Notes: generated by a model not told the origin, from the letters alone. DNA of 64,000 nucleotides from an uncultured Spirochaetota bacterium (GCA_963835575.1 CAWIGG010000002.1:198141-262140); one strand, 5' to 3'; positions 24,356 to 60,912 are shown, counted from the first letter of the stretch. Made by a program: numbers and translations.

Positions 24356-24437
24356 TCAATTATTTTTTCTACAGGAAGATAAGAATGCTCCGGATGTCTT
24401 TTCATGTAATCTATCTTAAAAAATTTCTGTTAAGCAA

Positions 24438-43420: not shown

Positions 43421-45211
43421 ATGAGGAAAATCTTAGTAAGGTTTCTGCTTCTTGCTCTAACTCTTGCGGCCGCATTGTGTGTTGTGTCATGCGCGTTATC
43501 AATCCCGGACGGATCGAATCAGGGTGAAAAATCCCAGCCTTTGGGTTCGGGCTTGAGGGCCGCTCCGGTAGGCAGCGGCGCGTATCCTTACGGAACTGTT
43601 CTCGGGAATGACAATCAAATGCTTGTCAACAGCTACAGCACCTGGAAATCGAAATACGTCACTTCTTCCGGGGCGTCGGGTTATCTGAGGGTCCAGCGCC
43701 CGGAAAATAACAATGATACTGTTTCGGAGGGCATCGGCTACGGCATGCTTATTGCCGTTTATATGAATGACCAGGCGACATTCAACTCTCTGTGGAGCTA
43801 TGCCCAGAAGTATCTGGACGCCGACGGCCTGATGAACTGGCAGATTGACAGTTCCGGGAACGTTATCGGACAGAACGGGGCCACGGACGCCGATGAGGAT
43901 ATGACTCTGGCACTGGTTGCCGCCGATAAATTATGGGGCGGCTATACTTCTCAGGCCACGGGCATGATCCAGAAAATTTATAATAACGAGGTCGAAAGCG
44001 GCACCTACTGCATAAAGCCGGGTGATGTCTGGGGCGGATCGGCATGTATGAACCCATCGTATTTTGCCACAGCGGAATACCGGGTTTTCGCACAGTATTC
44101 CGGCAATACAGGCTGGACTTCCGCGGCATCGGAATGCTATACGGTTTTAAACGCTAATAAAAACGCCACTACCGGTCTGGTGATGGACTGGTGCCAGGCT
44201 AACGGTACCCCTTCTTCCCAGCAGCCCGGTGGAACCAATTATCTCTATGATGCTTGCCGCGTTCCGATGAGAATATCTCTGGATTATCTGTGGTTCGGGA
44301 CTTCAAGCGCACAGACTTTCCTGAATACAATGATCGGCTGGTTTGCCAATATCGGCGCAGCAAATATTAAGTCCAGTTATACTGTAACCGGGACCCCGCT
44401 TGTGACTTACCAGGATTGCGCCTTTTTAGGGCCCATCGCTGCCGGTTCATGCTCGGCATCAGTCAGTTCAACTTTCAGGTCTGATATTTTTACCGATTTG
44501 ACCAACAGGGGCGTTAATAACAATTACTATAATGATTCTCTGGCAATGATCTGCATGCTGATCACAACCGGACACTTCCCGAATCCTCTAACTTTGAGCG
44601 GGAACTCTTCATCTTCCGCAGCTGCCAGTTCGAGCCGTTCCAGCGCCGCCTCTTCAGCAGCTGTGAGCTCCAGTGCAAGCGTAGCTTCTTCTGCCGCTGT
44701 GAGTTCGAGCCGGTCGAGCGTCGCTTCTTCAGTTGCCGTCAGTTCGAGCCGGTCGAGCGCTGCATCCTCAGCGGCAGTAAGCTCTAGCAGATCGAGCGCT
44801 GCGTCTTCTGTGGCTGTGAGTTCGAGCCGGGCCGCATCAAGTGCAGCTTCCAGCGCCGCAGTGTCCAGTGCGGCTTCAAGTACAGCCGGCGGATATGCTG
44901 TGAATTATACAGTCAATAATGATTGGGGCGCAGGCGCTACATGCACGGTAACCATAAAGAACAATAGCGCCGCGGCTGTAAACGGATGGACCTTAGTATG
45001 GACTTACACGGGTAATCAGACTCTCACACAGATATGGAACGCTGCATATACTGCAAGCGGAGAGACCATTACCGTCACAAACGCAAGCTTTAACAATGTT
45101 ATCAGTGCTAACGGCGGGACTCAGAGCTTCGGCTTCAATTTGAGCTATAGCGGATCCAATGCCAAACCAACGGCGTTTACGCTGAACGGGACGGCATGTA
45201 CAACGTACTAA
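43421..45211 (+). CDS. GH8 glycanase lipoprotein - Ser linker - CBM2-like
   Basis: AGGAGG RBS. Signal ending VVSC|A. NNDTVSEGIGYGMLIAVYMND, GATDADEDMTLALVAADKLWG, PSYFA, DACRVPMRISLDY. Confidence 0.85.
   Translation: MRKILVRFLLLALTLAAALCVVSCALSIPDGSNQGEKSQPLGSGLRAAPVGSGAYPYGTVLGNDNQMLVNSYSTWKSKYVTSSGASGYLRVQRPENNNDTVSEGIGYGMLIAVYMNDQATFNSLWSYAQKYLDADGLMNWQIDSSGNVIGQNGATDADEDMTLALVAADKLWGGYTSQATGMIQKIYNNEVESGTYCIKPGDVWGGSACMNPSYFATAEYRVFAQYSGNTGWTSAASECYTVLNANKNATTGLVMDWCQANGTPSSQQPGGTNYLYDACRVPMRISLDYLWFGTSSAQTFLNTMIGWFANIGAANIKSSYTVTGTPLVTYQDCAFLGPIAAGSCSASVSSTFRSDIFTDLTNRGVNNNYYNDSLAMICMLITTGHFPNPLTLSGNSSSSAAASSSRSSAASSAAVSSSASVASSAAVSSSRSSVASSVAVSSSRSSAASSAAVSSSRSSAASSVAVSSSRAASSAASSAAVSSAASSTAGGYAVNYTVNNDWGAGATCTVTIKNNSAAAVNGWTLVWTYTGNQTLTQIWNAAYTASGETITVTNASFNNVISANGGTQSFGFNLSYSGSNAKPTAFTLNGTACTTY
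44606..44887 (+). repeat. Ser-rich linker-coding degenerate tandem repeat
   Basis: SSSSAAASSSRSSAASSAAVSSSASVASS... Confidence 0.8.
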
Positions 45212-45219
45212 AATAAAAA

Positions 45220-45288
45220 AGCGGGCGTCCCTCACCAGTTTGTCAAGCTCCACCTGAGAAACAAACAAACTGGTGAGGGACGCCCGCT
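45220..45288. terminator. Long (24-bp stem) bidirectional terminator hairpin between convergent genes
   Basis: AGCGGGCGTCCCTCACCAGTTTGT-21 nt-ACAAACTGGTGAGGGACGCCCGCT, A-run upstream, T-rich downstream. The inner 15-bp arms are identical to a hairpin inside the intron (23546-23595). Confidence 0.7.
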
Positions 45289-45310
45289 ATTACTACTTTA
45301 TTATCTTATT

Positions 45311-45835
45311 TCAATTGTCTCTATGGTCTCTTTTTTTATCTTCCCTGCCGGGCTTCTCTTTAGCGTTTTTTCCTCTTTGACTATTATCATTCCCTTTCTT
45401 TGGTTCTTCATTTTTCCAGCCGCGTTTGTCCCAGTATTTATTCTTATGCCATTCCTTCCAGTGGGCCTTTGTGTCATTCCATTTTACTTTTACCGCATCA
45501 TTCCGTGAATCTCTCCACCTGGGAGGCATATGCGTGATTGCGTAGGGAACACGCCGGTTATCAACAACAACCCAGTTCCCGGAATAATTATCCGATCTGT
45601 ACCAGCCCCCCTGCAATGGCCTCCACCAGAAGCCTTCATAAAAGAAAATGTCGTTGTTATCGGAAGATGTGTAGTAGATATAGGTGCCCGGTATAACAAT
45701 CAGATCTGGATTGGAACCTAAAACGATATTGGCCACAGTTTTGTGAACGATAAGTGATGCAGTGGCAGCAGGCGCCTGTGAGAAAAGCGCCGCAATAAAC
45801 AAAAAGATCAGAATGAAAAAGGTTCTTTTCAACAT
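45311..45835 (-). CDS. Secreted hypothetical protein with aromatic/Gly-rich core and Lys/Arg-rich tail
   Basis: AAGGAG RBS. Signal peptide MLKRTFFILIFLFIAALFSQAPA. FFYEGFWWRPLQGGWYRSDNYSGNWVVV. No family recognised. Confidence 0.6.
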   Translation of the reverse strand: MLKRTFFILIFLFIAALFSQAPAATASLIVHKTVANIVLGSNPDLIVIPGTYIYYTSSDNNDIFFYEGFWWRPLQGGWYRSDNYSGNWVVVDNRRVPYAITHMPPRWRDSRNDAVKVKWNDTKAHWKEWHKNKYWDKRGWKNEEPKKGNDNSQRGKNAKEKPGREDKKRDHRDN

Positions 45836-45950: not shown

Positions 45951-47729
45951 TCAGAAAGGCCATTCTGGGAGCCATTTCAGTAATTGAACATAGTCTCTGC
46001 CGGCCGGCATTCCGGAAATGACCGGATAAAAGATGATAAAAAGGGCCGCCGCGGCCGCCAGCCAGCCGTAAATCAAAAACCGGGTCCATGTTTTCTTTTC
46101 CGTAATATGACGCATTATATAAACGGCGCAGAGGACCATAAAAGGAACGGCCGCGTAGAAATGATAAATCCAGGTCAGTCTCTGCACAAGAATCCACGGG
46201 AGATACTGGGCAAAAAAGCCCGTCAGGATGAAGAAAGCCTTTTTGTCCCTTGTTTTAATACCGGCGATAAGGCATGCTATGACAGCCAGAATGCCCGGCC
46301 ACCAGACCGCTGGATTTCCCATGGCGGCTATGGTGGAGACGGTGACGGCCGGAAAATATTCATGGCCGCTGTAGTACCAGACGGGTTTCAGCATCAGCGG
46401 CCATGTCCACCATTTTGAAGCGTAGGGATGTGTTGCATTGAGGCTGGTATGATAGCGGAGCATGTTCAGCTGGTTGCCCAGGATCTGGTCCAATCCCGGG
46501 CCGCGCGCGAAAGGCGTGGGCAGGTAGGAAAGAACATATACTGACGCGGGAATGACGATGAATGACAGCGCGGCAATCCCGGCCAGCTTGAGGATTTGCC
46601 CGGGATAGCGCCTGACGGAAGCCTTGAGCGTTTCCGCATCTCCGTCCGGAATATTTTTCCCCGCATTGATTTTCCGGGCCGCGCAGGAACGGTATTCCTG
46701 AAAACTCCTGAAGACGGCCGCAAAGAAAATAACGGCAAGTCCCGCGCCGGCGTAAAAAGAAATCCACTTGACCGATATGCCGAGTCCGAAAAAAAGTCCG
46801 CTGAGGAGGAGCGGACAGGCCGCTTTTTTAAGGCCGTTTTTAAAAAGGTCCCCGCTGTAAAAACAGTACATGAAATAATACATCAGAATGATAAAAAAGA
46901 CGGCAAATGTGTCGACAGTCCCTATCCGGGATTCTGTAAAATGGAGAAAATCGGCCGCGAACAGTATCAGCGCGAAAAACGCGTATTTCCGGCTGTTGAA
47001 TAATCCGCGGGCGAGCAAGTAAAGAATGATGAGCATGCCGATCCCGAAGAGGGCGCCCATCACGCGCCAGCCGAAGGGGCCCATGCCGGAAAGAAATATT
47101 CCGCCTGCGATGATCAGTTTGCCGAGGGGCGGATGCGTCCACTCAAAAGGCTCCATTCCATGAAGATATTCGTACGCCGTCCGGGCCGTGTAAATTTCGT
47201 CAAAATACATACTATTATAGAAGGAAGGAGTAAAAGGAACGGCCGCCTGTTCGTCAAAAAGGTTGGCCGGAGAACCTTCGCTTAACGGGCTGATTTTTAC
47301 CGGGATGATATTTTTTACTCTTAAAAGGCGGTACATATTATTTTCTTCTCCCCAGATGCCGGCCTCGTAAAGAGTGGAACCGGGAATTTCCACTGTCAGC
47401 CGGATAAAAGCGGCGCTGAAATCATATTCCGTCCTTTTCCAGGCAAAAAGAGAGGGGATGAGGGCCCGGTCTTTCATCCAGTTTGTGCCGTCCTGTGAAT
47501 ATTCCAGATCGTATCGCCCTTCGCCGCTTATACCGCCGAAACAGGAAATATATTTTACGTCTTGTTTTCCGCCCAGGTCAATAATAAAGCTTTCACTTTG
47601 TGCGGCCGGCTTCCAGCCGGTGCGGGGGCTTTTCGGGCTTCCGAGATTAAGGAAGGCGATAAAGCTGTACACGCATAATAACAGGCAGAGGAATATCAGC
47701 TCCTTGTTTGTAAAGGGAAGTCTGGTCAT
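45951..47729 (-). CDS. GT-C fold, GT39/PMT-like polyprenyl-phosphate-sugar:protein O-glycosyl(mannosyl)transferase with discoidin-like insert
   Basis: YFDEIYTARTAYEYLHGMEPFEWTHPPLGKLIIAGG (loop-1 DE motif). Many TM helices. C-terminal WIYHFYAAVPF. Insert GWKPAAQSESFIIDLGGKQDVKYISCFG..YDLEYSQDGTNW after TM1. ATGA overlap with the upstream gene. Confidence 0.8.
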   Translation of the reverse strand: MTRLPFTNKELIFLCLLLCVYSFIAFLNLGSPKSPRTGWKPAAQSESFIIDLGGKQDVKYISCFGGISGEGRYDLEYSQDGTNWMKDRALIPSLFAWKRTEYDFSAAFIRLTVEIPGSTLYEAGIWGEENNMYRLLRVKNIIPVKISPLSEGSPANLFDEQAAVPFTPSFYNSMYFDEIYTARTAYEYLHGMEPFEWTHPPLGKLIIAGGIFLSGMGPFGWRVMGALFGIGMLIILYLLARGLFNSRKYAFFALILFAADFLHFTESRIGTVDTFAVFFIILMYYFMYCFYSGDLFKNGLKKAACPLLLSGLFFGLGISVKWISFYAGAGLAVIFFAAVFRSFQEYRSCAARKINAGKNIPDGDAETLKASVRRYPGQILKLAGIAALSFIVIPASVYVLSYLPTPFARGPGLDQILGNQLNMLRYHTSLNATHPYASKWWTWPLMLKPVWYYSGHEYFPAVTVSTIAAMGNPAVWWPGILAVIACLIAGIKTRDKKAFFILTGFFAQYLPWILVQRLTWIYHFYAAVPFMVLCAVYIMRHITEKKTWTRFLIYGWLAAAAALFIIFYPVISGMPAGRDYVQLLKWLPEWPF

Positions 47730-49303
47730 TGTTTCATCCTTATCTCATTATTCTCTGGAATTCCCGCTTCCGATGAAATAAACAGGAGAGGGTTTCTGTT
47801 TTTAATAAACAGGTCATAGCCGGTTTTTACAAGCCATGCAAGGGCCGTCAGATGGAGAAATGAAATGATAAAAAAGAACTGGTCGAACCGGGGAACATAG
47901 AATGAGTTCATCAGGCTGAACTGAAAGACATACCCTGTATTGAGAAAATGCAGCAGGCTTAAGAACCCGGTGATCAGAAAAATCCTTTTGTCTTTTGTGA
48001 AAATGAAAGCAATCAATCCCAGGGCGATGGCCGGGTAGAGGTACCGTTCATGCATCCTGGAACTTAAAATAAAAACCGCCGTGATAATAAATAAAGCCGT
48101 ATAAGAATAAAATTCCCGTCCTTTATTTTTCAGGAAGACAAACACGGCCCATCCCAGTACGGCAAATATAAATACAAATCCCCAGATGGAATAGGGCAGG
48201 AAAAGAAATGTTTCCGAATCAGGCATCCCGTTGCCTCCGGAAAGGGAGAATAAATTGGCAGCGTTCAGGCTCGCGTAGGGATAGAGGGCAAGGGAGTCCG
48301 TGTATTTTTTGAAAATCCAGAACGGACCCTGTATGACGGAAAAGGGAATGATGCCGAGGATGAAAACGAGAATGCCGGCCCCCGCGCCGGCCAGGAACGT
48401 CCGCAAGCCTCCTTTTCTAATGAAGGCAAAAATAAGGAGCGGGGCGAAGATCAGCGCCTGCGGTTTGATAAGAAGGGCGGCGGCGAAAAAGCAGCACGCT
48501 TGAACGGCCTTTTTTTCAATCAGAAGTATCAGCGTCAGCAGGATGAAGAGGGTGAATACGGAATCGATCTGGCCCCAGACCGCGGAATTCAGGATAATAG
48601 CGGGATTAAAAAGAAAGAGAGCGCTCAGAACAAAAGCCTGCCGGCCGCCTCCGTTTTTTTCCGCATGGCGGAAGATGAAAAAAGCGGTCAGGAGGTCGGC
48701 TATGATTGCCGGCAGTTTAAGAATAATAATATAAAGCCGGGAATCCTGAGGAAGCATAAAGATTTTTCTGATGGCGCCTATGATGTATAAAAAATAGATA
48801 TATCCGGGGGGATAGTCCGCGAAAATTCCTATATAGAAGCCCGGTAGTCCCCTGTCGGCGGCCTGGATCGCCCATGCGGAGAAATTATGTATGTCGACGG
48901 GATGCCCTTTAAAGGAAACGGCGAGGATGACGCGGAGGATGAGGCCGGCGGCGAAAAGGATGGAAAGGCCCCGGAAATTTATTTCTTTATTCGCAGTGCC
49001 GTCAAAAGATTTTTTCTGTAATAAAAAATAGCCTGCCGCCAGAAGCGCGGCGTAGGCAAGGGTAATAATCAGGAGGACCGGGATCGAGACGGGGTTTCCA
49101 GGTTGGGTGTCAGTCACCATCGGGGCCGCCATGTTTGCCAGCTTCATAAAGAAAGGCTGAACAGGTGTGAATTTTAGGACAGCCTGTCCATCTTCGACCC
49201 GGATGCCGGGTAAATGGGAAATTGTGTTTTCCACCGGGAAAAGACGGCCGCAAAAAGAGAGCGCAATAATAATGAATAAGAGTTTAACGAGCCTTTTATT
49301 CAT
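47726..49303 (-). CDS. GT-C fold membrane glycosyltransferase (DUF2029 / Gpi18-like mannosyltransferase family)
   Basis: Polytopic membrane protein. VDIHNFSAWAIQAADRGLPGFYIGIFADYPPGYIYFLY. Translationally coupled to the PMT-like gene. Confidence 0.65.
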   Translation of the reverse strand: MNKRLVKLLFIIIALSFCGRLFPVENTISHLPGIRVEDGQAVLKFTPVQPFFMKLANMAAPMVTDTQPGNPVSIPVLLIITLAYAALLAAGYFLLQKKSFDGTANKEINFRGLSILFAAGLILRVILAVSFKGHPVDIHNFSAWAIQAADRGLPGFYIGIFADYPPGYIYFLYIIGAIRKIFMLPQDSRLYIIILKLPAIIADLLTAFFIFRHAEKNGGGRQAFVLSALFLFNPAIILNSAVWGQIDSVFTLFILLTLILLIEKKAVQACCFFAAALLIKPQALIFAPLLIFAFIRKGGLRTFLAGAGAGILVFILGIIPFSVIQGPFWIFKKYTDSLALYPYASLNAANLFSLSGGNGMPDSETFLFLPYSIWGFVFIFAVLGWAVFVFLKNKGREFYSYTALFIITAVFILSSRMHERYLYPAIALGLIAFIFTKDKRIFLITGFLSLLHFLNTGYVFQFSLMNSFYVPRFDQFFFIISFLHLTALAWLVKTGYDLFIKNRNPLLFISSEAGIPENNEIRMKQ

Positions 49304-50092
49304 AATAGTACCTACAGCTCAAATAAGATTTTCCCCGACCTTTATAGCAGGATATAACTATAGGCCAAATAAAGAGGTCTGTCAAGAAAGTGTGGAGGGC
49401 AGGCGCGGCCTCCGATTTAATCGGGGAGATTGTTCACTTTCTTTTGTCCGGATTGCCTGTCGGTTATTTCATTTTCGGAGTCAAACCAGCCCCTTACAAT
49501 AAGCGGGCAAGACAAGCAAAAGAAAGTGAACCGAAAGAAAAATGCCTATTTCGAGGCCATTTTCATACGAAGCTATCGGATTGTATGGATGTGTGTTATC
49601 CGGCTTTTAATAAACAGTTCATTGTAATAATAGCCGCCTTAAATCGCTGTCCTTGCCCAGCACCACTTTGAGGACGGGCAATCAAAGTGGTGCTGGGCGT
49701 CGGTTTTGACATCCGTGTCAAAAGCATGCGCCTCTCTTCTATTATAATATAAACGGATAGCACGACTTTATATTGAGATATTTAATGCGCAGATTATGGC
49801 TAATGGAAAATGGCCTCTGGAACGGGGGGATGAAGAACTGGATGGAGTAAAAAATAAAAAACAAACAACGGACTTTAAGCAAAGAAGCCGTCATTGCGAA
49901 CAACACATATTCTCCATTGCCGCTGATTTGAGCGTGAAGCAATCTGTCTGCATAAAATAGTGAAGATGATTAAGAAAAAAATTATAGCTGTGCCGCCACT
50001 ATTGTTACTGGATATCCCCTCCTGCAGACGGTAAGCCCGGCCTTTTTCGTTCCGCATTTGACAAACGCCGGGATAATGTGTTAAACTGAATC

Positions 50093-50211
50093 GATTGGTA
50101 GGAATAGATTTGGGGATTAAATTACTATGTTTTGCTGAAAAAGCAAAGCAATTTTAAGCGTACTTGTTATGTTAACAGCATTGGGGCATGCGGAGAGGCA
50201 TGCCTTTTTTT
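50093..50211 (+). ncRNA. Candidate small RNA or leader (promoter + internal hairpin + terminator, no ORF)
   Basis: TTGACA (50058-50063), 17 nt, TTAAAC. Hairpin TTTGCTgaaaaAGCAAA. Terminator GGCATGC-ggagag-GCATGCC + T7 (50185-50211). Confidence 0.25.
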
Positions 50212-50309
50212 GTTTGAGAAGGAAGTAAAAAGGATTATTTCAGCTATAATAAGATATACAAAAGTCCTATAAAAATTATTGTAAATTTTGATAGAATAGG
50301 AGGTTGCTT

Positions 50310-50936
50310 ATGAAATCCGGCAGTTATTTCTCATGGTTCCAAGAAAATTGGTATAAAGCCGGGGTATTGGTCGGAATAATCTTGATTGTTTACCTTTTTG
50401 CACTTGTACTTCCAAATAATTTGCTGCTTTTTGTCCTGTTAATGTATACCCCTCTATATTATCTTCACGAGACTGAAGAATATATTTTTCCAGCCGGTTT
50501 TTACCAGTTTTTTAATAAGAATATATTCAAGACAGATCCGGAAAATGGTCCGCTTGAAACAAAATCTATATTTTGGATTAATATGGTTTATGTATGGATT
50601 GCCATACCAATTTTCAGCCTACTAGCCATTGTTGATTTGCGATGGGCGGCATGGTTGCCCTATTTTTTCATATTTCAAGCGTTTAGTCATCTAATTCTGG
50701 GAATTGTTGGTAAAAAGCTCCTTAACCCGGGTATGATTTCGTCATGGTTAGTGCATGTACCTTGGGGAATCTGGACAATAATTCTCCTGATGAATGCAAA
50801 AGTTATATTGAATCCATTCTGGAATTTATACCTGCTGATCGGTTTGCTGCTTAATGGAACCCTGCCAATCGTGGGACGTTTTCTTCTGGCGCGATACAAC
50901 AGTAAGAAAAGTGTGGGCAAATCTCGTGCGTCATAG
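50310..50936 (+). CDS. HXXEE-domain membrane protein
   Basis: ATG 50310 is 7 nt after TAGGAGG. Motif YYLHETEEYIF. Multiple TM helices. Confidence 0.6.
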   Translation: MKSGSYFSWFQENWYKAGVLVGIILIVYLFALVLPNNLLLFVLLMYTPLYYLHETEEYIFPAGFYQFFNKNIFKTDPENGPLETKSIFWINMVYVWIAIPIFSLLAIVDLRWAAWLPYFFIFQAFSHLILGIVGKKLLNPGMISSWLVHVPWGIWTIILLMNAKVILNPFWNLYLLIGLLLNGTLPIVGRFLLARYNSKKSVGKSRAS

Positions 50937-51291
50937 TTTTGCCTCTGTATTTTAAGATATTTTAGAATAAGTATTTGGAATATCATATAAGTTAAATCGT
51001 TAATAAATAATTTGTACCGGACTTTTGTATATCAGCGGCTATACGCTCCGCTCCGTCCTCACTAGCATTCCGGGCGGTGCTCGGCCTGACGGCAAATTTG
51101 GCTTTGTCATCTTTTTTGCGCGTGGGATGCAAAAAAGATGACAACCCTGCGGGACGCCAAACTTCTTCTACGCGCACCGTTATACGAAATTTGCCGGGCC
51201 GAAGCTGGTTGTGTGGTGTTTTCAGGCATCCTTGCCTGAAAACAGCGTAAGGTATATAATCAATCTTTAAATAAAACAAAGGAATTAAAGA

Positions 51292-54200
51292 ATGAGAAAA
51301 CAAGAGGGGCTTTTAATAGTTGAAGAGAAAGTAGATGATTTCAACAGAAACGAAAGTACTTACCTTTCAAAAAACTTTCAGGAAACGGAAGCGAGGACCC
51401 GGTTCATTGACCCGCTTTTTACAGCTCTCGGCTGGGAACTGGAACAAACCGGCCTGAACCGTCAATGCTGGGATGTTTACCGTGAATTCTCGCAGAGGGA
51501 CGATTCATCCACTAAAAAGCCCGATTATGCTTTCAGGATCAAAGAAAAAGGCGCGCCCCATAATAAATATAAAGAAAAATTCTTTGTCGAGGCGAAAGCC
51601 CCATGGGTCCCTCTTACAGACGCAAAGCCCGTCTTTCAGGCCAAAAGATACGCCTTTTCATCTCATGGCAAAGCCCCCATCGTCATTCTCACCGACTTTC
51701 AGGAATTCCGGGTTTTCAACGGCCTGGAAAGACCGCGTTTCGAAAATCCTCTGCAGGGATTGATTAAAGAGCTGGATTTAAAATATACCGATTATTCAGT
51801 TAAATGGGATTTACTCTGGGCCAACTTTTCAAAAGAAGCCGTTTATGACGGAAGCATAGATATCCTTGCGGGAAAAGTTTCCAGGAGTACAAAAACATTG
51901 GACGATGAATTTCTGAATGATATTATCGAATGGAGAGAAACGCTCGCACGGAATGTCGCCATCCGGAATAATAACCTGTCCGTCGATGAAATCAATGAAG
52001 CCGTTCAAAGAATTCTTGACCGTTTTGTCTTTATCAGAAACCTTGAGGACAGAAACATTGAAGACGAGAACCTTCTTATAAATCTTGTGGACCGTCAGGA
52101 CGGCGGGGACGCGCATTTTTATAAATGTATCGTCCCGGTATTCCGTAAATTCGATATTGATTATAACGGCCTTCTTTTTAAAAAACATTTCAGCGAAGAC
52201 CTGGAAATTGATAATAAGGTCATTAAAGATATCATTAAAAGCATGAGTTCGCAGGTCTCACCTTTCCGGTTTGATATCATAGAGCCTGAAATATTGGGGC
52301 GGATTTATGAAAGATTTCTCGGCTCCAAAATCCGGCTGACGGAAGACCACCATGCGAAGGTCGAGGAAAAACCGGAAGTGCGCCATGCCGGGGGCGTTTA
52401 TTACACGCCGGAATATATCGTCAAATACATCGTTGAAAACACCGTGGGAGCGTTATTAAAAGGTGAAACCGCCGCCACAGACAGGAATGTCTGTGGTACC
52501 ACCGGCATTCCTGCCGGTGGAGGTATGCCCCCCGAAGAAATCGAGAAAATTAAAATACTCGACCTCGCCTGCGGTTCGGGAAGTTTCCTGCTTGGGGCTT
52601 TCGGCTACCTGATAAAATACCATCAGGATTATTACTCCGGTCTTTCCAAAACCGCCCGGAAGAAATACAAAGACGATTTTTTTGAAACCCCGGACGGAGA
52701 AATCCGCCTGACCCTGCGGAAGAAAGGCAAAATCCTGAAAAACAATATTTTCGGCGTGGACATCGACAGGGAGGCCACGGAAGTGGCAATTATGAGCCTT
52801 TATTTAAAACTGCTGGACGAGGGTTTTGACAAAGGGCAGGCTTTACTATTTATGAAGGGCCATATTCTGCCGGATATGACGGCGAATGTGAAGTGCGGGA
52901 ATAGTTTGATTGGCACGGATTACTTTGAAGGAATGCTAAAGATAAACGATGAGGAATTTAAGAAGATCAATCCTTTCGATTGGGAGAAAGAGTTTTCTGA
53001 AATACTAAAAAAAGGCGGCTTCGATTGTGTGATTGGGAACCCGCCGTATATTCGTATTCAAGAGCTTAAGGAATATCAACCTGAAACCATTCCCTACTTA
53101 AAATCAAAATACTATTCTGCTTTATCTGGAAATATTGACATTTATGTAATTTTCGTGGAAAAAGGGCTAAGTTTATTAGATAAAAATGGTAAACTTGGAT
53201 TTATTCTTCCAAGTAAATTTTTTGCCACTGATTATGGAACAGCATTACGAAAAATTATTTCAGAAAAAAAGGCTTTGAATAAAATAATTGATTTTGGACA
53301 TTCACAAGTATTTGAAAATGCAACTACTTATACCTGTTTATTATTCCTATCAAATGAACCGGTTAATAAAATGAATTATACCAAAGTTATTAATACATCT
53401 GAGATGCTCAAAGATGAAACAATGTCAATATTAATAGAGAATGATAAACTTACTGATTCTCCATGGATATTTGCTACAAATACAGAAAATCTAATAGCTG
53501 AGAAATTATTAAATAATTGTGTGCCGTTGAGTATGATATCAAGAATTGGGCGTGGCTCTAGTTCAGGAAATGATGATGTTTTTATGCTAAAAATTAAAAA
53601 CGGTTCTTTCTTTACACGGCAAGACGAAAGTATTAATATTGAAAAAGAAATTCTACGCGTACCTATTTATGCAACTGATTTCAATCGTTTTAGTTTTGCA
53701 CCAGATTCTGGAGAACTAATTATTTTTCCTTATAAAGTCAATAATAATGATTATGAATTGATTTCTGAAAATGAAATAAAAAACAATTTCCCTAAAGCAT
53801 ATAAATATCTTTATACACATAAAAAGGAATTGGAGGCACGCAAACAATTTAAAACATGGTATAGTTTTAGTGCTCCAAGAAATTTAGAAGTTCATGAAAA
53901 AGCGCATATTCTTGTACCACTTTTAGCGGATCGTGGTTTGTTTTGTCGGCTTCCACTGGAATCCAATAATTATTGTTTAATGGCTAGTGGAGGATTTAGT
54001 ATAACAATAAATAGCGAGTGTGGATTATCTCCAAATTACATACTAGGTTTATTAAATTCACGCGTATTATTTTGGCGTCTTCGTTCAATTAGCAATATAT
54101 TTCGAGGTGGATGGATTACTTGTACAAAACAATATGTCGAAACATTACCAATATATAAAATCAATTTTTCTGTTGAAAGAGATAAATTTCATTATGACAG

Positions 54201-54384
54201 TATGGTATCCTTTGTAGATCAAATGCTTTCCGTTCAAAAAGACCTGCAAAAATCTAATACCGATCAGGGGAAAGCCCTTTTAAACCGGCAGATTGAAATG
54301 CTCAACAGCCAGATTGATAAACTGGTATATGAGCTGTATGGATTGACGGACGAGGAGATAAAAGTGGTGGAGGGGAAGGAATGA
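51292..54384 (+). CDS. Type IIG restriction-modification enzyme (N-terminal PD-(D/E)xK nuclease + gamma-class N6-adenine methyltransferase + TaqI-C-like specificity region)
   Basis: KKPDYAF...FFVEAKAPW. Motif I ILDLACGSGSFLLGAF. Motif IV VIGNPPYIR (53038-53049). 1030 aa single chain. Tail LYGLTDEEIKVVEGKE. Confidence 0.85.
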   Translation: MRKQEGLLIVEEKVDDFNRNESTYLSKNFQETEARTRFIDPLFTALGWELEQTGLNRQCWDVYREFSQRDDSSTKKPDYAFRIKEKGAPHNKYKEKFFVEAKAPWVPLTDAKPVFQAKRYAFSSHGKAPIVILTDFQEFRVFNGLERPRFENPLQGLIKELDLKYTDYSVKWDLLWANFSKEAVYDGSIDILAGKVSRSTKTLDDEFLNDIIEWRETLARNVAIRNNNLSVDEINEAVQRILDRFVFIRNLEDRNIEDENLLINLVDRQDGGDAHFYKCIVPVFRKFDIDYNGLLFKKHFSEDLEIDNKVIKDIIKSMSSQVSPFRFDIIEPEILGRIYERFLGSKIRLTEDHHAKVEEKPEVRHAGGVYYTPEYIVKYIVENTVGALLKGETAATDRNVCGTTGIPAGGGMPPEEIEKIKILDLACGSGSFLLGAFGYLIKYHQDYYSGLSKTARKKYKDDFFETPDGEIRLTLRKKGKILKNNIFGVDIDREATEVAIMSLYLKLLDEGFDKGQALLFMKGHILPDMTANVKCGNSLIGTDYFEGMLKINDEEFKKINPFDWEKEFSEILKKGGFDCVIGNPPYIRIQELKEYQPETIPYLKSKYYSALSGNIDIYVIFVEKGLSLLDKNGKLGFILPSKFFATDYGTALRKIISEKKALNKIIDFGHSQVFENATTYTCLLFLSNEPVNKMNYTKVINTSEMLKDETMSILIENDKLTDSPWIFATNTENLIAEKLLNNCVPLSMISRIGRGSSSGNDDVFMLKIKNGSFFTRQDESINIEKEILRVPIYATDFNRFSFAPDSGELIIFPYKVNNNDYELISENEIKNNFPKAYKYLYTHKKELEARKQFKTWYSFSAPRNLEVHEKAHILVPLLADRGLFCRLPLESNNYCLMASGGFSITINSECGLSPNYILGLLNSRVLFWRLRSISNIFRGGWITCTKQYVETLPIYKINFSVERDKFHYDSMVSFVDQMLSVQKDLQKSNTDQGKALLNRQIEMLNSQIDKLVYELYGLTDEEIKVVEGKE

Positions 54385-54446
54385 CTAACTACAGATAAAT
54401 AGATGCACATGGATAGAAAACGGCCCGAATCTGTGTTTATCCGCGC

Positions 54447-54457
54447 TTAATTAACCC
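54447..54457 (+). repeat. Direct repeat TTAATTAACCC (left copy)
   Basis: An identical 11-mer recurs at 57734-57744. The two copies bracket the ATPase + membrane-protein genes. Confidence 0.6.
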
Positions 54458-54481
54458 ATACGTGGGCAGGGAGGATGAATA

Positions 54482-57103
54482 ATGATGCTAAGAGAGTTTC
54501 ATAATTTTATGATTGAACTTGCAGAAAAATCTGTTTCAGATGATGTTAAACGGATGGGAAATATTATCTTGAAATATCTTAATGAAATTATTCCTCTTAG
54601 CACTGCATATGGTCAGCGATCAAAAAAGATTATCGAATTAGCACAAAACGAATTTGAAAAAATAGTTCCACAAATTACTGTTTCTACAGAGTCTAATCAG
54701 GAAGATGAATTTGCTATCAGTCGATTAAAAAGTATTGAAATTGAATCATTCAGGGGTTTTAATCAAAAAGAAATATTTGATATAGATGCGCCGATAGTTC
54801 TACTTTATGGTCCCAATGGTTCAGGAAAAACCAGCTTTTGTGAGGCGTTAGAATATTCCCTTTTAGGGTTTGTGGAAGAAGCAGAGGTAAAACGGTTTTC
54901 AAACACAGATTACCTCAAGAATGCAAGAACAGATAGGCTTGAATTTCCTATACTAAAAGCAATTAATGCCAAAGGAGAAATGATTCTGGTTTCTCAGAAT
55001 GATGCAATTTACAGATTTTGTTTTGTTGAAAAAAATAGAATAGACGACTTTTCCCGCATGGCTGCAAAGTTACCTGCTCAACAAAATAAATTGATCGGCA
55101 CTCTTTTTGGCTTGGATTCTTTTGATGAGTTTGTGAAGGGATTTTCCAATGAACTAGATTCGAGATATATCGATTTAATCGGTCAAAAAACTATTGAATT
55201 GCAAGAAAAGAGAAAAACTCTCAGTGCTGACGAACAAATAGCTGCATCAGCGGAAAAAGATTTTGAAGAACTTACATCAACTGAAAACAAGACGGTATCA
55301 GAATTTAAATCTGATATGAATTATCCCGATTTTGTTGCTTATCTTGGTACTATAGAGAAACCTGGCAGAATTCAAGAACTCGAACAATTAATAGAAAAAC
55401 AAATACCGAAAAAAATTGGATTGACTCTTTCAATACTTAAAGAGATTGATAATTCACTGACATATTCTCTAGAGAAAATTAATAGTTATGAAAAAACACT
55501 GGAGGCCAAAAGGAATCAGATTTCTTTTCGTAACTTGTATCGGGCAGTAAAAGAACTACATACTGAAAATCCTGATATTTGTCCTGCTTGTTCCACCCCT
55601 TTGAAAAAAGTTGCTCAAGATCCCTATTTAAGAGCAGAAAATGGATTAAAAGAATTGGAAAATCTTTCAGAATTAGAACAAAATTTATCTGATTACAAAG
55701 CGGCACAGCAAAAATCTTTAAGTGATTTGTTTCAATTGGTGAAATCTGCGGTTGATTTTGAACAGACTTGCTTAAATCATGAATTAACCAATGTTCCGAA
55801 TTCTGAAAAAGAAATGACATGTGATTTGTGGCTGAATTTTAAGCAAGACTCTGGTGATGACGGTTTGAATTGGCAGAAATTGGAAAATATTATTAGTAAA
55901 ATAGAAGAATATGATAATAAAATTGAAGAACTTGAAAATGAGCGCGATAGTTATATTGTTGAAATTAAACAGCTAAGAATATATAGGGAAGAGGTTGTTC
56001 GTCATGATGAAGCCCGCAAGAAGAAAAATGAAACTATTGAGAAGGCTAAAAAAAATATAATTCAATTTGAAACAGATAATAAAAAGCTAATTGAAGAAGT
56101 AGAATCAGAAAAGCAAAATATAGAAACAAATAAAAGAATTGCGGGCGCTTATAAAATTTTCGTTGAAGAACTGAATATCTATCGAAAGGAATTGCCAGAA
56201 AAATTGATAGCAGATTTAGCAGATAAAGTTAAGGAACTCTACAATGGGTTTAATCGAGCGGACCAGGATGGTGACCTTTTAGCGGAGATTCGTTTGCCTC
56301 TTGTCTGTGGAAGTAAAATTGAAGTTGCTTTCAATAGCGAACCAACTCATTTTTTTGATGCGTTGCATGTATTAAGTGAAGGACATATCCGATGTTTAGG
56401 ATTATCCATATTATTGGCAAAGAATTTAAAACAAAAGTGTCCTCTTTTGATTTTTGATGATCCTGTTAATGCAATAGATGATGATCATCGAGAAGGAATT
56501 CGTAGAACAATATTCGAAGATAGTTTGTTTGCCGATTCACAAATAATTCTTACTTGTCATGGAGAAGAGTTCTTTAAGGATGTTCAGAATTTATTAGGTG
56601 TGAAAAAAGTAAAAGAAACAAAAGCATTTACGTTTATTCCACATATTGGAGATAATCAGATTATAGTTGATTCATCACCTACCCCAAGAAACTATGTGGT
56701 TGCTGCGAGAAATCACTTTTCTAAAGGTGAAATTCGTGAATCATTGGCAAAAAGTAGACGAGCATTGGAATTTCTCGCGAATGAAACATGGAAGTTTGTT
56801 GCCAAATATGGTGATGGTTCTCTTGCATTGACAATAAAAGGCCCAAAAGAAAGGTTAGAATTAAGAAATCTAATAGAGAAATTGAGTTCTAAAGTTAAAA
56901 AAAGTAATTTTATACACAATGAAAAAGATAAATTATCTTCAGCTTTATCATCTTTATTAGGTATTGATGGACAATCACGAGAATGGAGATATTTAAATGG
57001 TGGTACACATGAAGAGGAAGACCGGGAAGAATTTGACCGACCAACAGTTCAAACAATTGTTGAATCTCTTGAAAAAACAGATGAGGTGATAAGGGCTGAA
57101 TAA
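54482..57103 (+). CDS. RloC/PrrC-like ABC (Rad50/SMC-type) ATPase with coiled-coil CxxC zinc hook and C-terminal putative anticodon-nuclease domain
   Basis: Walker A LLYGPNGSGKTS (54809-54832 covers GPNGSGKT). Long coiled-coil with CPAC (55580-55591). Signature LSEGHIRCLGLS. Walker B LLIFDDPVNAIDDDH. C-terminal SRRALEF (R-x3-E) and YLNGGTHEEE. Confidence 0.7.
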   Translation: MMLREFHNFMIELAEKSVSDDVKRMGNIILKYLNEIIPLSTAYGQRSKKIIELAQNEFEKIVPQITVSTESNQEDEFAISRLKSIEIESFRGFNQKEIFDIDAPIVLLYGPNGSGKTSFCEALEYSLLGFVEEAEVKRFSNTDYLKNARTDRLEFPILKAINAKGEMILVSQNDAIYRFCFVEKNRIDDFSRMAAKLPAQQNKLIGTLFGLDSFDEFVKGFSNELDSRYIDLIGQKTIELQEKRKTLSADEQIAASAEKDFEELTSTENKTVSEFKSDMNYPDFVAYLGTIEKPGRIQELEQLIEKQIPKKIGLTLSILKEIDNSLTYSLEKINSYEKTLEAKRNQISFRNLYRAVKELHTENPDICPACSTPLKKVAQDPYLRAENGLKELENLSELEQNLSDYKAAQQKSLSDLFQLVKSAVDFEQTCLNHELTNVPNSEKEMTCDLWLNFKQDSGDDGLNWQKLENIISKIEEYDNKIEELENERDSYIVEIKQLRIYREEVVRHDEARKKKNETIEKAKKNIIQFETDNKKLIEEVESEKQNIETNKRIAGAYKIFVEELNIYRKELPEKLIADLADKVKELYNGFNRADQDGDLLAEIRLPLVCGSKIEVAFNSEPTHFFDALHVLSEGHIRCLGLSILLAKNLKQKCPLLIFDDPVNAIDDDHREGIRRTIFEDSLFADSQIILTCHGEEFFKDVQNLLGVKKVKETKAFTFIPHIGDNQIIVDSSPTPRNYVVAARNHFSKGEIRESLAKSRRALEFLANETWKFVAKYGDGSLALTIKGPKERLELRNLIEKLSSKVKKSNFIHNEKDKLSSALSSLLGIDGQSREWRYLNGGTHEEEDREEFDRPTVQTIVESLEKTDEVIRAE

Positions 57104-57171
57104 AGCATTAAAAATAATGAATAACTCCAAAATTTAATAAAAAAGAATTATTAATAAGTGAGGATATAAAA

Positions 57172-57708
57172 ATGTTAAGATGGATATTCTTTTTGTTAAG
57201 TTTAATAGCATTCTGTATTCTAGCTTTTGTTCTATGTCCTGGAAAAGGATTTGCAATATCAGGTTTATTAATTGGAATTTACGGTTTTGGCGCAACAATT
57301 TATACTCTTCAAAAAGGAAACATTATTCGGGAAGCTGAATTTATTGAAAGACTATGTGGCGTTTTTGAAAGGCCAAATATCAGCAAACTTTATTATAAAA
57401 TTGAATATAATCATTTGTCCTCTATTTTAGATGAATCAGAAGATGAGAAAGATTTAGATGAATTGATTAGTTTTTTTGATAGTATGGAGTATTATCATAA
57501 GAAAAAAATAATCTCCGATGATGAAGTGGAATTTGTTGCTGTTGAATTGTTGACAGTTTATGAGAATGAAGTTGTCCGCCAATACATTAAGAAAGTTCAA
57601 AAATATTTCAATAAATATCAGCATGATATTATTCCATCAACTGGTTTTCAAGATTTAGCTGAGAAATTAATAAAAGAACCGAAATACAGTATTTATAAAA
57701 AGAAATGA
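57172..57708 (+). CDS. Small membrane protein (two N-terminal TM helices + acidic/helical cytoplasmic domain), unknown function
   Basis: GAGGA RBS. MLRWIFFLLSLIAFCILAFVL / ISGLLIGIYGFGATIYTL. AT-rich like the upstream ATPase gene. No family recognised. Confidence 0.55.
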   Translation: MLRWIFFLLSLIAFCILAFVLCPGKGFAISGLLIGIYGFGATIYTLQKGNIIREAEFIERLCGVFERPNISKLYYKIEYNHLSSILDESEDEKDLDELISFFDSMEYYHKKKIISDDEVEFVAVELLTVYENEVVRQYIKKVQKYFNKYQHDIIPSTGFQDLAEKLIKEPKYSIYKKK

Positions 57709-57733
57709 TCAGCGAAACTATGTTCATCTGTGG

Positions 57734-57744
57734 TTAATTAACCC
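57734..57744 (+). repeat. Direct repeat TTAATTAACCC (right copy)
   Basis: Identical to 54447-54457. Both copies lie just after a stop codon. Confidence 0.6.
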
Positions 57745-57825
57745 TTAAGGCAGTATTTAATATGGAAAGAACAATTGGGGTTGAATAAAAAAGCAAAATG
57801 TTAACAAATATTTTAGGGGGTATAT

Positions 57826-58713
57826 ATGAAGAAAATTTTCCTTACTCTATTATTCTTGGTTCCGGGTTCTTTCCTGTTTCCCTGGACAGACGGCGGTCAT
57901 AAACTCGTCGGCTATATCGCCGGGGAGTATTTGAGTGCTGCCGCGTGCAGCAATATCTACAAATTTATCAAGAACGATCTTACCGCTGGTTCCAATTCAC
58001 TGGAACAGCAGGTCAAGGCATGGATCATTCAGATAGCCCCGGATGCCGATTATATTTCAAATAAGGTGGGCGCCTGGCACTATATTGATTTACCGGAAGC
58101 CTCGAATTGGACGAGAAATGATATCTCAGCCTATATAGCTGCCAATACCGATAATGTCGTTTCTCAATTATCAAACGAAACGGCTTTCTTTGCAAAAGGT
58201 AAAAATAAGCCCGATTCCAAGGCTTACACCAATTTAATGCTTTTGATCCATTTTGCAGGCGATATCGCTCAGCCGATGCATAATATCGACTTTAACGGCG
58301 ACAGCGGCGGTAATGACCGGGTATTCACCAATCTGTACGAATTTTATCAAGGGCACAACAAAAGAGTCAGTCTGCATCTTCTGTGGGATTTGGAGGCAAA
58401 TACCAATGATGTAACGGATATTGACGGAAAAGGGAAAGAATTGGCGTCGGATATTTCAAACATGATATTGACTAACGCCGGTTTGATAGCCAATTGGACG
58501 AACGGCTCGTTAATCGACTGGTCTTATGAGAGTTATTTGATCGGGAGAAATATTTATTCCAATCTTTCGATAACCAATGGGACTAAATCAATGTTGGCAA
58601 TGACTAATTTCTCTGAATACAGGTCAAATAATCAAGAGACAGCGTTTATGCAGATTAAAAAAGGCGGATTCAGATTAGCCTATTTGCTGAATACCCTATT
58701 CGGGAAAAAGTGA
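57826..58713 (+). CDS. Secreted S1/P1-family zinc nuclease
   Basis: Signal peptide ending FLFP|W, giving mature N-terminal Trp (WTDGGHKLVGYIA, compare WGxxGH). LLIHFAGDIAQPMH. SLHLLWD. Confidence 0.8.
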   Translation: MKKIFLTLLFLVPGSFLFPWTDGGHKLVGYIAGEYLSAAACSNIYKFIKNDLTAGSNSLEQQVKAWIIQIAPDADYISNKVGAWHYIDLPEASNWTRNDISAYIAANTDNVVSQLSNETAFFAKGKNKPDSKAYTNLMLLIHFAGDIAQPMHNIDFNGDSGGNDRVFTNLYEFYQGHNKRVSLHLLWDLEANTNDVTDIDGKGKELASDISNMILTNAGLIANWTNGSLIDWSYESYLIGRNIYSNLSITNGTKSMLAMTNFSEYRSNNQETAFMQIKKGGFRLAYLLNTLFGKK

Positions 58714-58802
58714 CCCGGATGACACGGATGGGAACTGCTTAAAGTTAAATTAAAAATTGGGGGATAAAAAATTTCCCCAAAATTTATCGTAAGGATGGCA
58801 AA

Positions 58803-58856
58803 ATGGCCCGGAAGAAGACGGAGGAGGAGATTAAGGTGGTGGAGGGGAACGGTTAA
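58803..58856 (+). pseudogene. Orphan 3' tail of a second R-M/methyltransferase gene
   Basis: Encodes ...KKTEEEIKVVEGNG*. The DNA gacggaggaggagattaaggtggtggaggggaacggttaa parallels the 51292 gene tail gacggacgaggagataaaagtggtggaggggaaggaatga (54346-54384). Confidence 0.5.
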
Positions 58857-59579
58857 ATGATAGAAAGCCGGGAAAATATTTTATTCCGCGGGAAATACCG
58901 CGCAAAAACCACACGGCTGCCGAATTGGGATTACGGTGCGAACGGTTTTTATTTCGTAACCATCTGTCTTAAAAACCGGGAATGTGTTTTCGGCAATGTG
59001 ATTGACGGCAAAATGGTCCTGTCCGAAACCGGAAAAATTGCCGGTCAATTTTGGAAGGCCATACCGGAACATTTTCCGTTTGTAATCCCGGATGAATATA
59101 TTATCATGCCGGACCATATCCATGGGATAATTGTAATTAATAAAAATGATGACAATGATAATGCCGTAATACCTGCACCCGTAACCGTAACCGAATCCGA
59201 AACCGCGGTAGTAGAGACAAGGCAATGCCTTGTCTCTACGAATACGAATACGACGAATACGAAAATGAATACGAATACCGGTAATATGGGTATTACGAAT
59301 ACGGGTATTATGGATAATACAATATCGGAAACAACGGATTCGGGAACGAATAATATTAAATCCCGGTTTCAGGACCAGGGTTCGAGAACATTATCATCAA
59401 TCATCGGTTCGTATAAATCGGTATGTAAAAAAACAATCAATAGAATACAAAACGCCATTGATTTTCAATGGCAATCCCGTTTCCATGACCATATCATCAG
59501 GGATGAACGGGCATTGATAAATATCAGGAATTATATTATCAATAATCCCGCAAATTGGGAAACGGATGAGGAACGATAA
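58857..59579 (+). CDS. IS200/IS605-type Y1 (HUH) transposase-like protein, REP-associated (RAYT)-like, with low-complexity insertion
   Basis: FYFVTICLKNRECVFG. HUH motif MPDHIHGIIV. SIIGSYKS. WQSRFHDHIIRDERALINIRNYIINNPANW. ~55-aa insert rich in T/N. Confidence 0.75.
   Translation: MIESRENILFRGKYRAKTTRLPNWDYGANGFYFVTICLKNRECVFGNVIDGKMVLSETGKIAGQFWKAIPEHFPFVIPDEYIIMPDHIHGIIVINKNDDNDNAVIPAPVTVTESETAVVETRQCLVSTNTNTTNTKMNTNTGNMGITNTGIMDNTISETTDSGTNNIKSRFQDQGSRTLSSIIGSYKSVCKKTINRIQNAIDFQWQSRFHDHIIRDERALINIRNYIINNPANWETDEER
59238..59318 (+). repeat. Degenerate hexanucleotide (ACGAAT)n microsatellite inside the RAYT-like CDS
   Basis: acgaat acgaat acg acgaat acgaaa atgaat acgaat ... encodes TNTNTTNTKMNTNTGNMGITNTG. 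Preceded by the 14-bp-arm palindrome GTAGAGACAAGGCA a TGCCTTGTCTCTAC (59211-59239). Confidence 0.75.
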
Positions 59580-59597
59580 ATATCTAGGGAGAAACTC

Positions 59598-60635: not shown

Positions 60636-60912
60636 TCCCAAAAACATCCGCGTGGGACTTGTGGTGAGCTTGCCGAATCCATTGGGGTTCAATAATCATT
60701 TTCAATAAAATAAAAAAGGTTCTGAAACAAAATCCTTTTATCTGCCGGGCGTAGCCCACCCCAAAAATCCCCCATCGTCCTATGTTATGGTATGCATCGA
60801 GAAAAGCATCCAGGCGGCTTTAATAAAACTAAATCCTATTAATCCGCATTAATCCGTGCAAATCTGTGTGAGAAATCGGATATTATAAAAAAGAATCTCT
60901 GCAAATCCCCGC

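Follow-up and report, generated by a model that had tools for sequence, protein, structure and literature searches.

A split GT87 and GT39 glycosyltransferase pair beside a Ser-linker cellulase array as a candidate protein O-glycosylation module in an uncultured spirochaete

We analysed a 64,000-nt stretch of DNA (the window) from an uncultured Spirochaetota bacterium (GCA_963835575.1, CAWIGG010000002.1:198141-262140), in which two genes for predicted glycosyltransferases (GTs) of the GT-C type lie next to an array of glycoside hydrolase (GH) genes. Open reading frame (ORF) calling confirmed both genes on the minus strand: a GT87/DUF2029-type GT-C gene of 525 aa at 47726-49303, predicted to encode a glycan-extending enzyme, and a GT39/PMT-type GT-C gene of 592 aa at 45951-47729, predicted to encode an initiating protein O-glycosyltransferase. 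At their junction, which reads AGGATGAAACAATGACC on the minus strand, the ATG of the PMT gene overlaps the TGA stop of the GT87 gene. This ATGA overlap (47726-47729, minus strand) has AGGA 8 nt upstream and was read in the sequence as an earlier note on this DNA had described it, indicating a putative translational coupling of the two genes. Public contigs, among them a 2.05-Mb NCBI contig and a Logan contig, encode proteins identical to both products, and the Logan contig has the same three-gene order as the window (GT87, PMT and a 174-aa gene). The G+C content at the pair (0.47-0.50) is like that of the hydrolase array and unlike that of the low-G+C island to the right.

The array consists of 17 glycoside hydrolase genes (GH9, GH5, GH116, GH12, GH10, GH8 and others, by Pfam) at 1124-45211 on the plus strand, whose products are candidate acceptors. 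All 17 proteins end in a carbohydrate-binding module (CBM) of family CBM2 and carry Ser-rich linkers almost without Pro or Thr. Apart from some Ala, Val and Arg, the linkers consist almost purely of Ser, and together they contain about 920 serines. The hydrolases are Sec-exported, several with clear lipoboxes, and would cross the periplasmic membrane face, the site of PMT-type action, in an unfolded state. The nearest of them is a GH8-linker-CBM2 gene (43421-45211, plus strand), 740 nt from the end of the PMT gene. A consensus scan found a candidate sigma-70-like promoter, TTGACA-17-TATAGT (11/12, a pattern match only), at 49357-49385 on the minus strand, 54 nt upstream of the GT87 gene. Because of this site the pair is predicted to form its own transcription unit, convergent with the hydrolases, and because it lies on the opposite strand it would not be co-transcribed with them. 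The "operon next to the array" of the earlier note is therefore not supported as a regulatory unit. Its description of the pair as lying 740 nt beyond the last hydrolase gene and converging on it was right in distance and direction, but the gap is not empty, as it contains the 174-aa gene and a hairpin.

The 592-aa protein matched three Pfam families above the gathering score (PMT_4TMC, PF16192, 1.1e-23; PMT, PF02366, 3.7e-16; PMT_2, PF13231, 1.9e-13). Its PMT_4TMC C-terminal four-helix region (residues 418-590; 45960-46478, minus strand) aligned to residues 532-728 of Pmt1. The catalytic DE motif, D177-E178 in YFDEIY (47196-47201, minus strand), is invariant in alignments A1 and A2 and aligns with D77-E78 of Pmt1 and with the DE of Pmt4. 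A second DE, D159-E160 in FDEQ (47250-47255, minus strand), is likewise invariant. Both were invariant in an alignment of 42 sequences, in which HPPLGK was also present, and the profile built from this alignment placed HPPLGK against HPPLAK and FDE against D77-E78 of yeast Pmt1. The AlphaFold model (pLDDT 91, pTM 0.91) comprises a first transmembrane helix (TM1) at residues 8-26, an all-beta region at about 38-145 and then a helical GT-C core. When this model was compared with the PDB by Foldseek, ranks 1-7 were Pmt4 and Pmt1-Pmt2 (E 2e-14 to 7e-10), and AglB, ArnT and PglB ranked below the PMTs. No MIR domain was found in the protein by Pfam, and the model has only a short hairpin at 450-469. 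The NCBIfam equivalog for actinobacterial Pmt (NF058602) gave only 92.7 bits against a cutoff of 800. Pfam, fold and DE-motif alignment thus agree with the PMT-type domains first proposed for this protein. By these comparisons it is a member of the PMT family and not an orthologue of actinobacterial Pmt. All GT39 enzymes characterised so far act, to our knowledge, on Ser/Thr of proteins.

Between TM1 (47652-47708) and the catalytic loop lies a CBM32-like (F5/8 type C, discoidin) beta-sandwich insert (residues ~38-145; 47295-47618, minus strand). The Pfam match to F5_F8_type_C (residues 35-88) is weak (2e-4, below gathering), the family profile matched the CBM32 chains of Clostridium perfringens GH89 by sequence (4a42, E 1.6e-5), and the beta domain of the model separately matched the CBM32 structures 4a42 and 2w1u in Foldseek. 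A discoidin-like insert between TM1 and the DE motif had been noticed before, and it is upheld by these matches together with the model. It is present in all 42 aligned relatives, and on this alignment it marks a whole subfamily rather than the window gene alone. By homology with PMT topology it would be extracytoplasmic. CBM32 modules typically bind Gal/GalNAc.

The 525-aa protein matched Pfam GT87 (7e-8, 32.9 bits against a cutoff of 25) and, more weakly, Alg6_Alg8. Its sequence ADYPPGY (48800-48820, minus strand) contains the family-invariant D163-Y-P-P of a 42-sequence alignment, and D137 (48893-48895, minus strand) is also invariant in 42 relatives; the two Asp residues are candidates for the counterpart of D58, the catalytic Asp of PimE in the first extracytoplasmic loop. 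In the AlphaFold model (pLDDT 84) residues 17-70 are disordered; the first ~70 residues, which are of low confidence, occupy the same position as the CBM_4_9-like domain of fused relatives. The GT87-type profile gave no match against PDB sequences, and solved structures were reached at the fold level only, where the top Foldseek matches were ALG6 (7e-6), PimE (7e-5), ALG3 and GPI-MT-I. Each of these enzymes extends an existing glycan by one sugar, which it takes from a polyprenyl- or dolichyl-phosphate sugar. The above-cutoff GT87 match and the ALG6/PimE-type fold confirm the DUF2029 type assigned to this protein in the earlier note.

A family survey, in which one genome per species was scanned, showed that at least 595 species, mostly of Bacillota, carry this PMT subfamily; the counts of loci given here refer to the best 80 carriers. 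These belong mostly to Paenibacillus, Cohnella, Clostridia, Lachnospiraceae and Christensenellales, and also include Nitrospirota, Atribacterota and one deltaproteobacterium. A GT87-type sequence lies immediately upstream of the PMT sequence on the same strand in about 70 of the 80 loci, and in about 65 both are encoded by one ORF of about 1,040-1,300 aa. An exhaustive search of 1.84 billion cluster representatives returned 1,282 clusters at E <1e-30; among the top 150 of these, 106 representatives have a length of 950 aa or more. The closest relative, P0363, is a 1288-aa fusion of a CBM_4_9-like N-terminus, GT87, a CBM32-like domain and PMT. It is 60% identical to the 525-aa protein (over P0363 residues 204-656) and 55% identical to the 592-aa protein. 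By sequence comparison, the window pair is a split version of a widespread bifunctional enzyme. Because the two enzymes are fused in most relatives, they are predicted to be functionally coupled and to act as one functional unit. In many relatives (P0363, P0364 and P0368; L091, 990-1790) we also observed an extra CBM_4_9-like domain, either fused N-terminally or present as a separate membrane-anchored neighbour protein.

We clustered every ORF lying up to 10 kb from these 80 loci. A GtrA-family gene was found in 32 loci and a GtrB/DPM1-like GT2 gene in 28, nearly always directly downstream of the module, and further metagenomic loci (P0070 and P0098) agree with this pattern. Judged from gene content, these neighbours are a signature of predicted periplasmic glycosylation from a polyprenyl-phosphate monosaccharide. 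Ser/Thr-rich or cellulase neighbours were rejected as a family-wide rule, being found at about 3 and at none of the 80 loci, respectively. Together with the occurrence of the family in at least 595 species of several phyla, and with a closest relative that has no hydrolase nearby, these counts do not bear out the earlier description of the system as "dedicated" to the linkers. In 12 Paenibacillus-type loci a sortase gene lies a few genes downstream of the fused GT, GT2 and GtrA genes (for example L033, 13242-13922), which hints at wall-anchored proteins as substrates there.

Three relatives are closer to the window pair than those of Bacillota: P0363 (with the near-identical partial contig L091), P0002 and P0122. 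In P0363 (GCA_030602435.1) and L091 the fused gene is divergent from type II secretion/pilin-type genes, and downstream of it are genes for a CBM_4_9-like membrane protein, two polytopic proteins, a methyltransferase and a DPM1-like GT2. P0002, on contig L002, is 49% identical to the PMT protein, and its gene and that of a GH12-Ser linker-CBM64 lipoprotein are convergent. P0122, on contig L084, is 49% identical to the GT87 protein, and 1.7 kb separate its gene from that of a GH9-PA14-Ser linker-CBM64 lipoprotein. The L084 contig also carries a DUF1573/DsbD_TM gene (8539-9987), 54% identical to that at 60913-62361 of the window, with a 13-nt gap before its GT87 gene. Short identical stretches in inverted orientation were found at the contig ends (L084, 11417-11515; L002, 12-127), which suggests that the two contigs may come from a single locus, its assembly interrupted by a repeat or mobile element that lies between the GT87 and PMT genes. 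The ArgS on L084 is 58-65% identical to proteins of Brevinematales/Brevinematia. This relative is thus probably from Brevinematales, and the window host is probably a Brevinematales-like spirochaete, as judged from a relative's ArgS only. The split form and the hydrolase linkage therefore occur together in two fairly divergent genomes, the window and a relative about 50% identical to it. On present comparisons, the cellulase linkage of the module is lineage-specific.

A precedent for such a linkage exists in Caldicellulosiruptor bescii. Russell et al. (2018, PMC6151902) described Cbes_1864, the only GT39 of this species, as a protein of 556 aa whose loop-1 domain (residues 32-124) they modelled as a CBM. 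Its gene is inside the glucan degradation locus, near celA, in a four-gene cluster. When it was deleted, extracellular enzymes no longer stained as glycoproteins and CelA was cleaved more, and complementation reversed both effects; Cbes_1864 is needed both for glycosylated cellulase linkers and for resistance to proteases (PMC6151902). Drawings of this locus from 2011 already show a GT39 gene in C. bescii and C. saccharolyticus (PMC3082886). The statement in the earlier note that no such linkage had been described is thus superseded by the reports of 2011 and 2018 (PMC3082886, PMC6151902). The CelA glycans have been reviewed as galactose disaccharides (PMC7142884), and disaccharide glycans fit a two-transferase module. 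A 2025 review gives B9MKU4 as the accession of Cbes_1864 and questions the galactose assignment (PMC12757957). Given these reports (PMC7142884; questioned in PMC12757957), the Gal/GalNAc binding typical of CBM32 modules and the lack of a donor synthase in the window, mannose, which had been put forward as the sugar, is not supported.

The window PMT is like Cbes_1864, as known from its description, in size (592 and 556 aa), TM1, the CBM-like domain in loop 1 and the GT-C core. In both species the gene adjoins genes of multidomain cellulases with long linkers, and the same is true of L002 and L084. The C-terminus of Cbes_1864, LKIM(K/R)SWIF as deduced from published cloning primers, fits the family tail L[KR]W[FL]xSW[IV]F over 9 residues. 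The 5' primer had no exact match in metagenome contigs, the primer-deduced termini were not found among all retrieved family sequences, and the size-matched P0070 and P0098 had no Caldicellulosiruptor-type cellulase neighbours. Unlike the window host, C. bescii is a monoderm Firmicute with Pro/Thr-rich linkers and with secreted or S-layer-associated enzymes, whereas the window host is probably a diderm spirochaete with almost pure Ser linkers and lipoprotein-like enzymes. Cbes_1864 lies on the cellulase strand in its four-gene cluster, whereas the window PMT is paired with a GT87-type gene and convergent on the array.

Comparison with other known systems showed partial likeness in each case. 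Actinobacterial Pmt (GT39), working with Ppm1, is like the window PMT a polyprenyl-phosphate-sugar-dependent GT-C enzyme with a DE motif in loop 1 (the donor of the window enzyme being predicted), but it has no CBM32-like insert and is neither fused nor paired with GT87. The substrates of actinobacterial Pmt include lipoproteins and cellulase linkers, and the glycosylation guards against proteases (PMC12757957). The eukaryotic PMT1/2/4 enzymes are the best structural matches of the window PMT, and the DE, HPPL(G/A)K and C-terminal four-helix region align; identity is only 12-20%, however, and they have a MIR domain in loop 5, whereas the window PMT lacks MIR and has the CBM32-like domain in loop 1. 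The GT87 mannosyltransferases of the PimE type have the Pfam family and fold in common with the 525-aa protein, but PimE acts on phosphatidylinositol mannosides and not on glycoproteins. In streptococci, the GT-C enzymes of the GtrB/PgtC2 and Pgf systems O-glycosylate extracytoplasmic disordered regions of poly-Ser/Thr and protect them from proteolysis (PMC11092751). The Pgf cluster (PgfS, PgfE, PgfM1 and PgfM2) has two GT-C genes, adjoins genes of its adhesin substrates and uses a lipid-linked monosaccharide donor (PMC11092751). These streptococcal enzymes are of the YfhO family and not GT39/GT87, and, unlike the window pair, have no CBM32 insert. The Gtr three-component systems (GtrA flippase, GtrB GT2 and a GT-C) resemble the family in that GtrA and GtrB-like GT2 genes often follow the module, but neither gene is present in the 64-kb window, and classical Gtr systems modify polysaccharides rather than proteins. 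Literature searches on bacterial GT39 with GT87, on PMT in Paenibacillus/Firmicutes and on Brevinematales cellulases found nothing relevant.

From gene structure, family and fold assignments, the fusion in relatives and the neighbourhoods, which are direct observations, we infer a donor, an acceptor, an order of steps and a role for the CBM32-like domain. In the best-supported reading, which we hold with moderate confidence, the PMT-type enzyme initiates on Ser, the second GT-C enzyme extends, and the linkers are thereby protected. The GT39/PMT enzyme would work on the periplasmic face of the inner membrane, where it would take the first sugar from a polyprenyl-phosphate-monosaccharide, presumably supplied by genes outside the window, and attach it to Ser (or Thr) within disordered stretches of Sec-exported proteins. 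The GT87-type enzyme would add a second sugar onto the first. This order fits the folds, as the PMT-like protein resembles Pmt1/2/4, which act on protein Ser/Thr, and its partner resembles ALG6, PimE, ALG3 and GPI-MT-I, which act in glycan extension. The CBM32-like domain, just before the catalytic DE loop, is probably sugar-binding and may keep an already glycosylated linker, or the first sugar, close to the active site. In this organism the most likely main acceptors would be the poly-Ser linkers of the lipoprotein hydrolases encoded alongside, and glycosylation would shield these linkers from proteolysis, as for C. bescii CelA. The sugar need not be mannose. The earlier note had likewise proposed initiation and extension on linker serines with protection as the outcome; the logic of the folds, the fusion, the recurrent hydrolase linkage and the C. 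bescii precedent now speak for these parts, and the notion of dedication is not borne out. Most likely, the module is a general glycosylation system now linked to major clients and not exclusive to them.

Several observations weigh against acceptance of the linkers as the substrate. The family occurs in taxa not known for cellulose degradation (Geobacter, Nitrospirota and gut Clostridia), no more than about 3 of the 80 family loci have a Ser/Thr-rich protein close by, no homologue of the window hydrolases or CBMs was found near any of the 80, and the P0363 locus has no hydrolase within ~6 kb on either side. Within the window, the pair runs opposite to the hydrolase genes and is preceded by a promoter-like site of its own, and no homologue of a donor synthase or flippase (GtrB-like GT2, GtrA) was found in the 64 kb. 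The hydrolase linkage is possibly a single ancestral arrangement because the two hydrolase-linked lineages share the gene order DsbD-like, GT87, PMT, and they may then represent one evolutionary event rather than independent support. As for the precedent, Cbes_1864 is likely in the same subfamily as the window PMT, from its published architecture and the 9-residue primer-deduced match only, and a milder phenotype of the same deletion was described in another C. bescii strain background (PMC7142884). The case for this organism is built from sequence, predicted models and neighbourhoods.

Two other explanations were weighed against linker glycosylation. The module could decorate an envelope glycolipid or polysaccharide (a lipoglycan, wall or capsule polymer) instead of proteins, in which case its adjacency to the array would be functionally meaningless, and its parallels would be the three-component systems of the Gtr type and mycobacterial mannosyltransferases of the GT87/MptA type. 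This agrees with the GtrA and GtrB-like GT2 genes as typical neighbours, as in O-antigen, teichoic acid and rhamnopolysaccharide modification systems, with the glycolipid substrates of all structural neighbours of the GT87-type partner, with the CBM_4_9-like and CBM32-like modules of the fused relatives, which suggest glycan recognition, and with the breadth of a family mostly unlinked to hydrolase or Ser/Thr-rich genes. However, the second domain is specifically PMT-like (PMT_4TMC, with the DE aligned to Pmt1) and its fold is nearer to the PMTs than to ArnT or the Emb enzymes; moreover, deletion of the architecturally matching GT39 of C. bescii abolishes protein glycosylation (PMC6151902), and the hydrolase linkage recurs in a divergent relative. 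We consider envelope decoration unlikely.

It is rather unlikely, in our judgement, that the pair O-glycosylates other exported proteins (such as pilins, chaperones or envelope enzymes with disordered Ser/Thr tracts), that the hydrolase linkers matter little as substrates, and that its place beside the array is inherited or due to chance where such hydrolase genes abound in the genome. For such clients speak the type II secretion/pilin-type genes that adjoin P0363, with no hydrolase nearby, the many carriers that are not cellulolytic, the separate transcription of the pair, and the order DsbD-like, GT87, PMT common to the window lineage and its relative, by which the linkage could be a single inherited arrangement. 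However, PMT-type enzymes act on exposed, Ser/Thr-rich disordered segments, and such enzymes could hardly bypass the roughly 920 serines in the linkers of Sec-exported lipoproteins. The adjacency also persists though the flanking hydrolase differs (GH8-CBM2 in the window; GH12-CBM64 and GH9-PA14-CBM64 in the relative), and the C. bescii deletion again provides a precedent (PMC6151902).

Between the pair and the array is a gene for a 174-aa secreted protein (45311-45835, minus strand), an ORF with a signal peptide that follows the PMT gene at its 3' side after a 115-nt gap and was also called on the independent Logan contig. It is possibly co-transcribed with the pair. The core of the protein is rich in Trp and Tyr and its tail is highly charged (Lys/Arg/Asp/Glu). 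It had no Pfam or NCBIfam match and no homologue was found at the 80 family loci, so it was rejected as a conserved member of the module. An inverted repeat with 27-nt arms that are 96% complementary (45217-45291) separates this gene from the convergent GH8 gene and is likely a bidirectional terminator. To the right of the pair, about 11.6 kb (49304-60912), including a low-G+C defence island, separates it from a gene for a 482-aa DUF1573/HYDIN-type Ig-like and DsbD_TM membrane protein (60913-62361, minus strand), of which the L084 gene described above is the orthologue. The DsbD-like protein may be a further, unrecognised module member, or the gene order may simply be conserved.

The defence island (~50300-60650, G+C 32-41%) contains genes for an HXXEE membrane protein, an S1/P1 nuclease, a type IIG restriction-methylase (51292-54384; PADLOC 1.6e-225), an LmuB-like SMC ATPase (54482-57103) and a RhuM/PDC-S05 protein (59598-60635). 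The array itself is broken at 20067-23361 (plus strand) by genes for a 7TMR-DISM-type hybrid histidine kinase and a diguanylate cyclase of the response-regulator-GGDEF form, which may point to control of the cellulase genes linked to cyclic di-GMP. Between the GGDEF gene and the next GH9 gene there are group II intron RNA domains (23612-24360, plus strand; Rfam RF02001 with 141.7 bits, RF01998 and RF00029), an element of ~750 nt with no ORF of at least 150 aa.

Returning to the linkers as acceptors, a more far-reaching proposal can be made, which we offer tentatively as a minority possibility. The pair would build a defined O-linked disaccharide densely on the pure poly-Ser linkers of the surface lipoprotein cellulases of a diderm spirochaete, and the CBM32-like domain would read the attached sugar and so make the process processive. 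The fusion (CBM_4_9, GT87, CBM32, GT39) would then be a general, unrecognised protein O-glycosylation machine of hundreds of Bacillota, including gut Clostridia, whose gene spread with cellulase genes into spirochaetes. As a type, the system is already known from C. bescii. What is distinct here is the first candidate from a spirochaete, the pure poly-Ser linkers of lipoproteins, and a naturally split form of a widespread and essentially unstudied GT87-GT39 fusion.

If linker glycosylation is true, the production of stable CBM2 or CBM64 cellulases in another host would require the two GT genes and a donor synthase, as has been argued for C. bescii CelA. The family is large and mostly consists of fused GT87-GT39 proteins, and no more than one of its members has been the subject of experiments. 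Knowledge of its acceptor and sugar would give access to protein or envelope glycosylation in many Bacillota, gut Clostridia among them. In the split two-gene form, which has evident candidate substrates beside it, genetics can tell initiation from extension.

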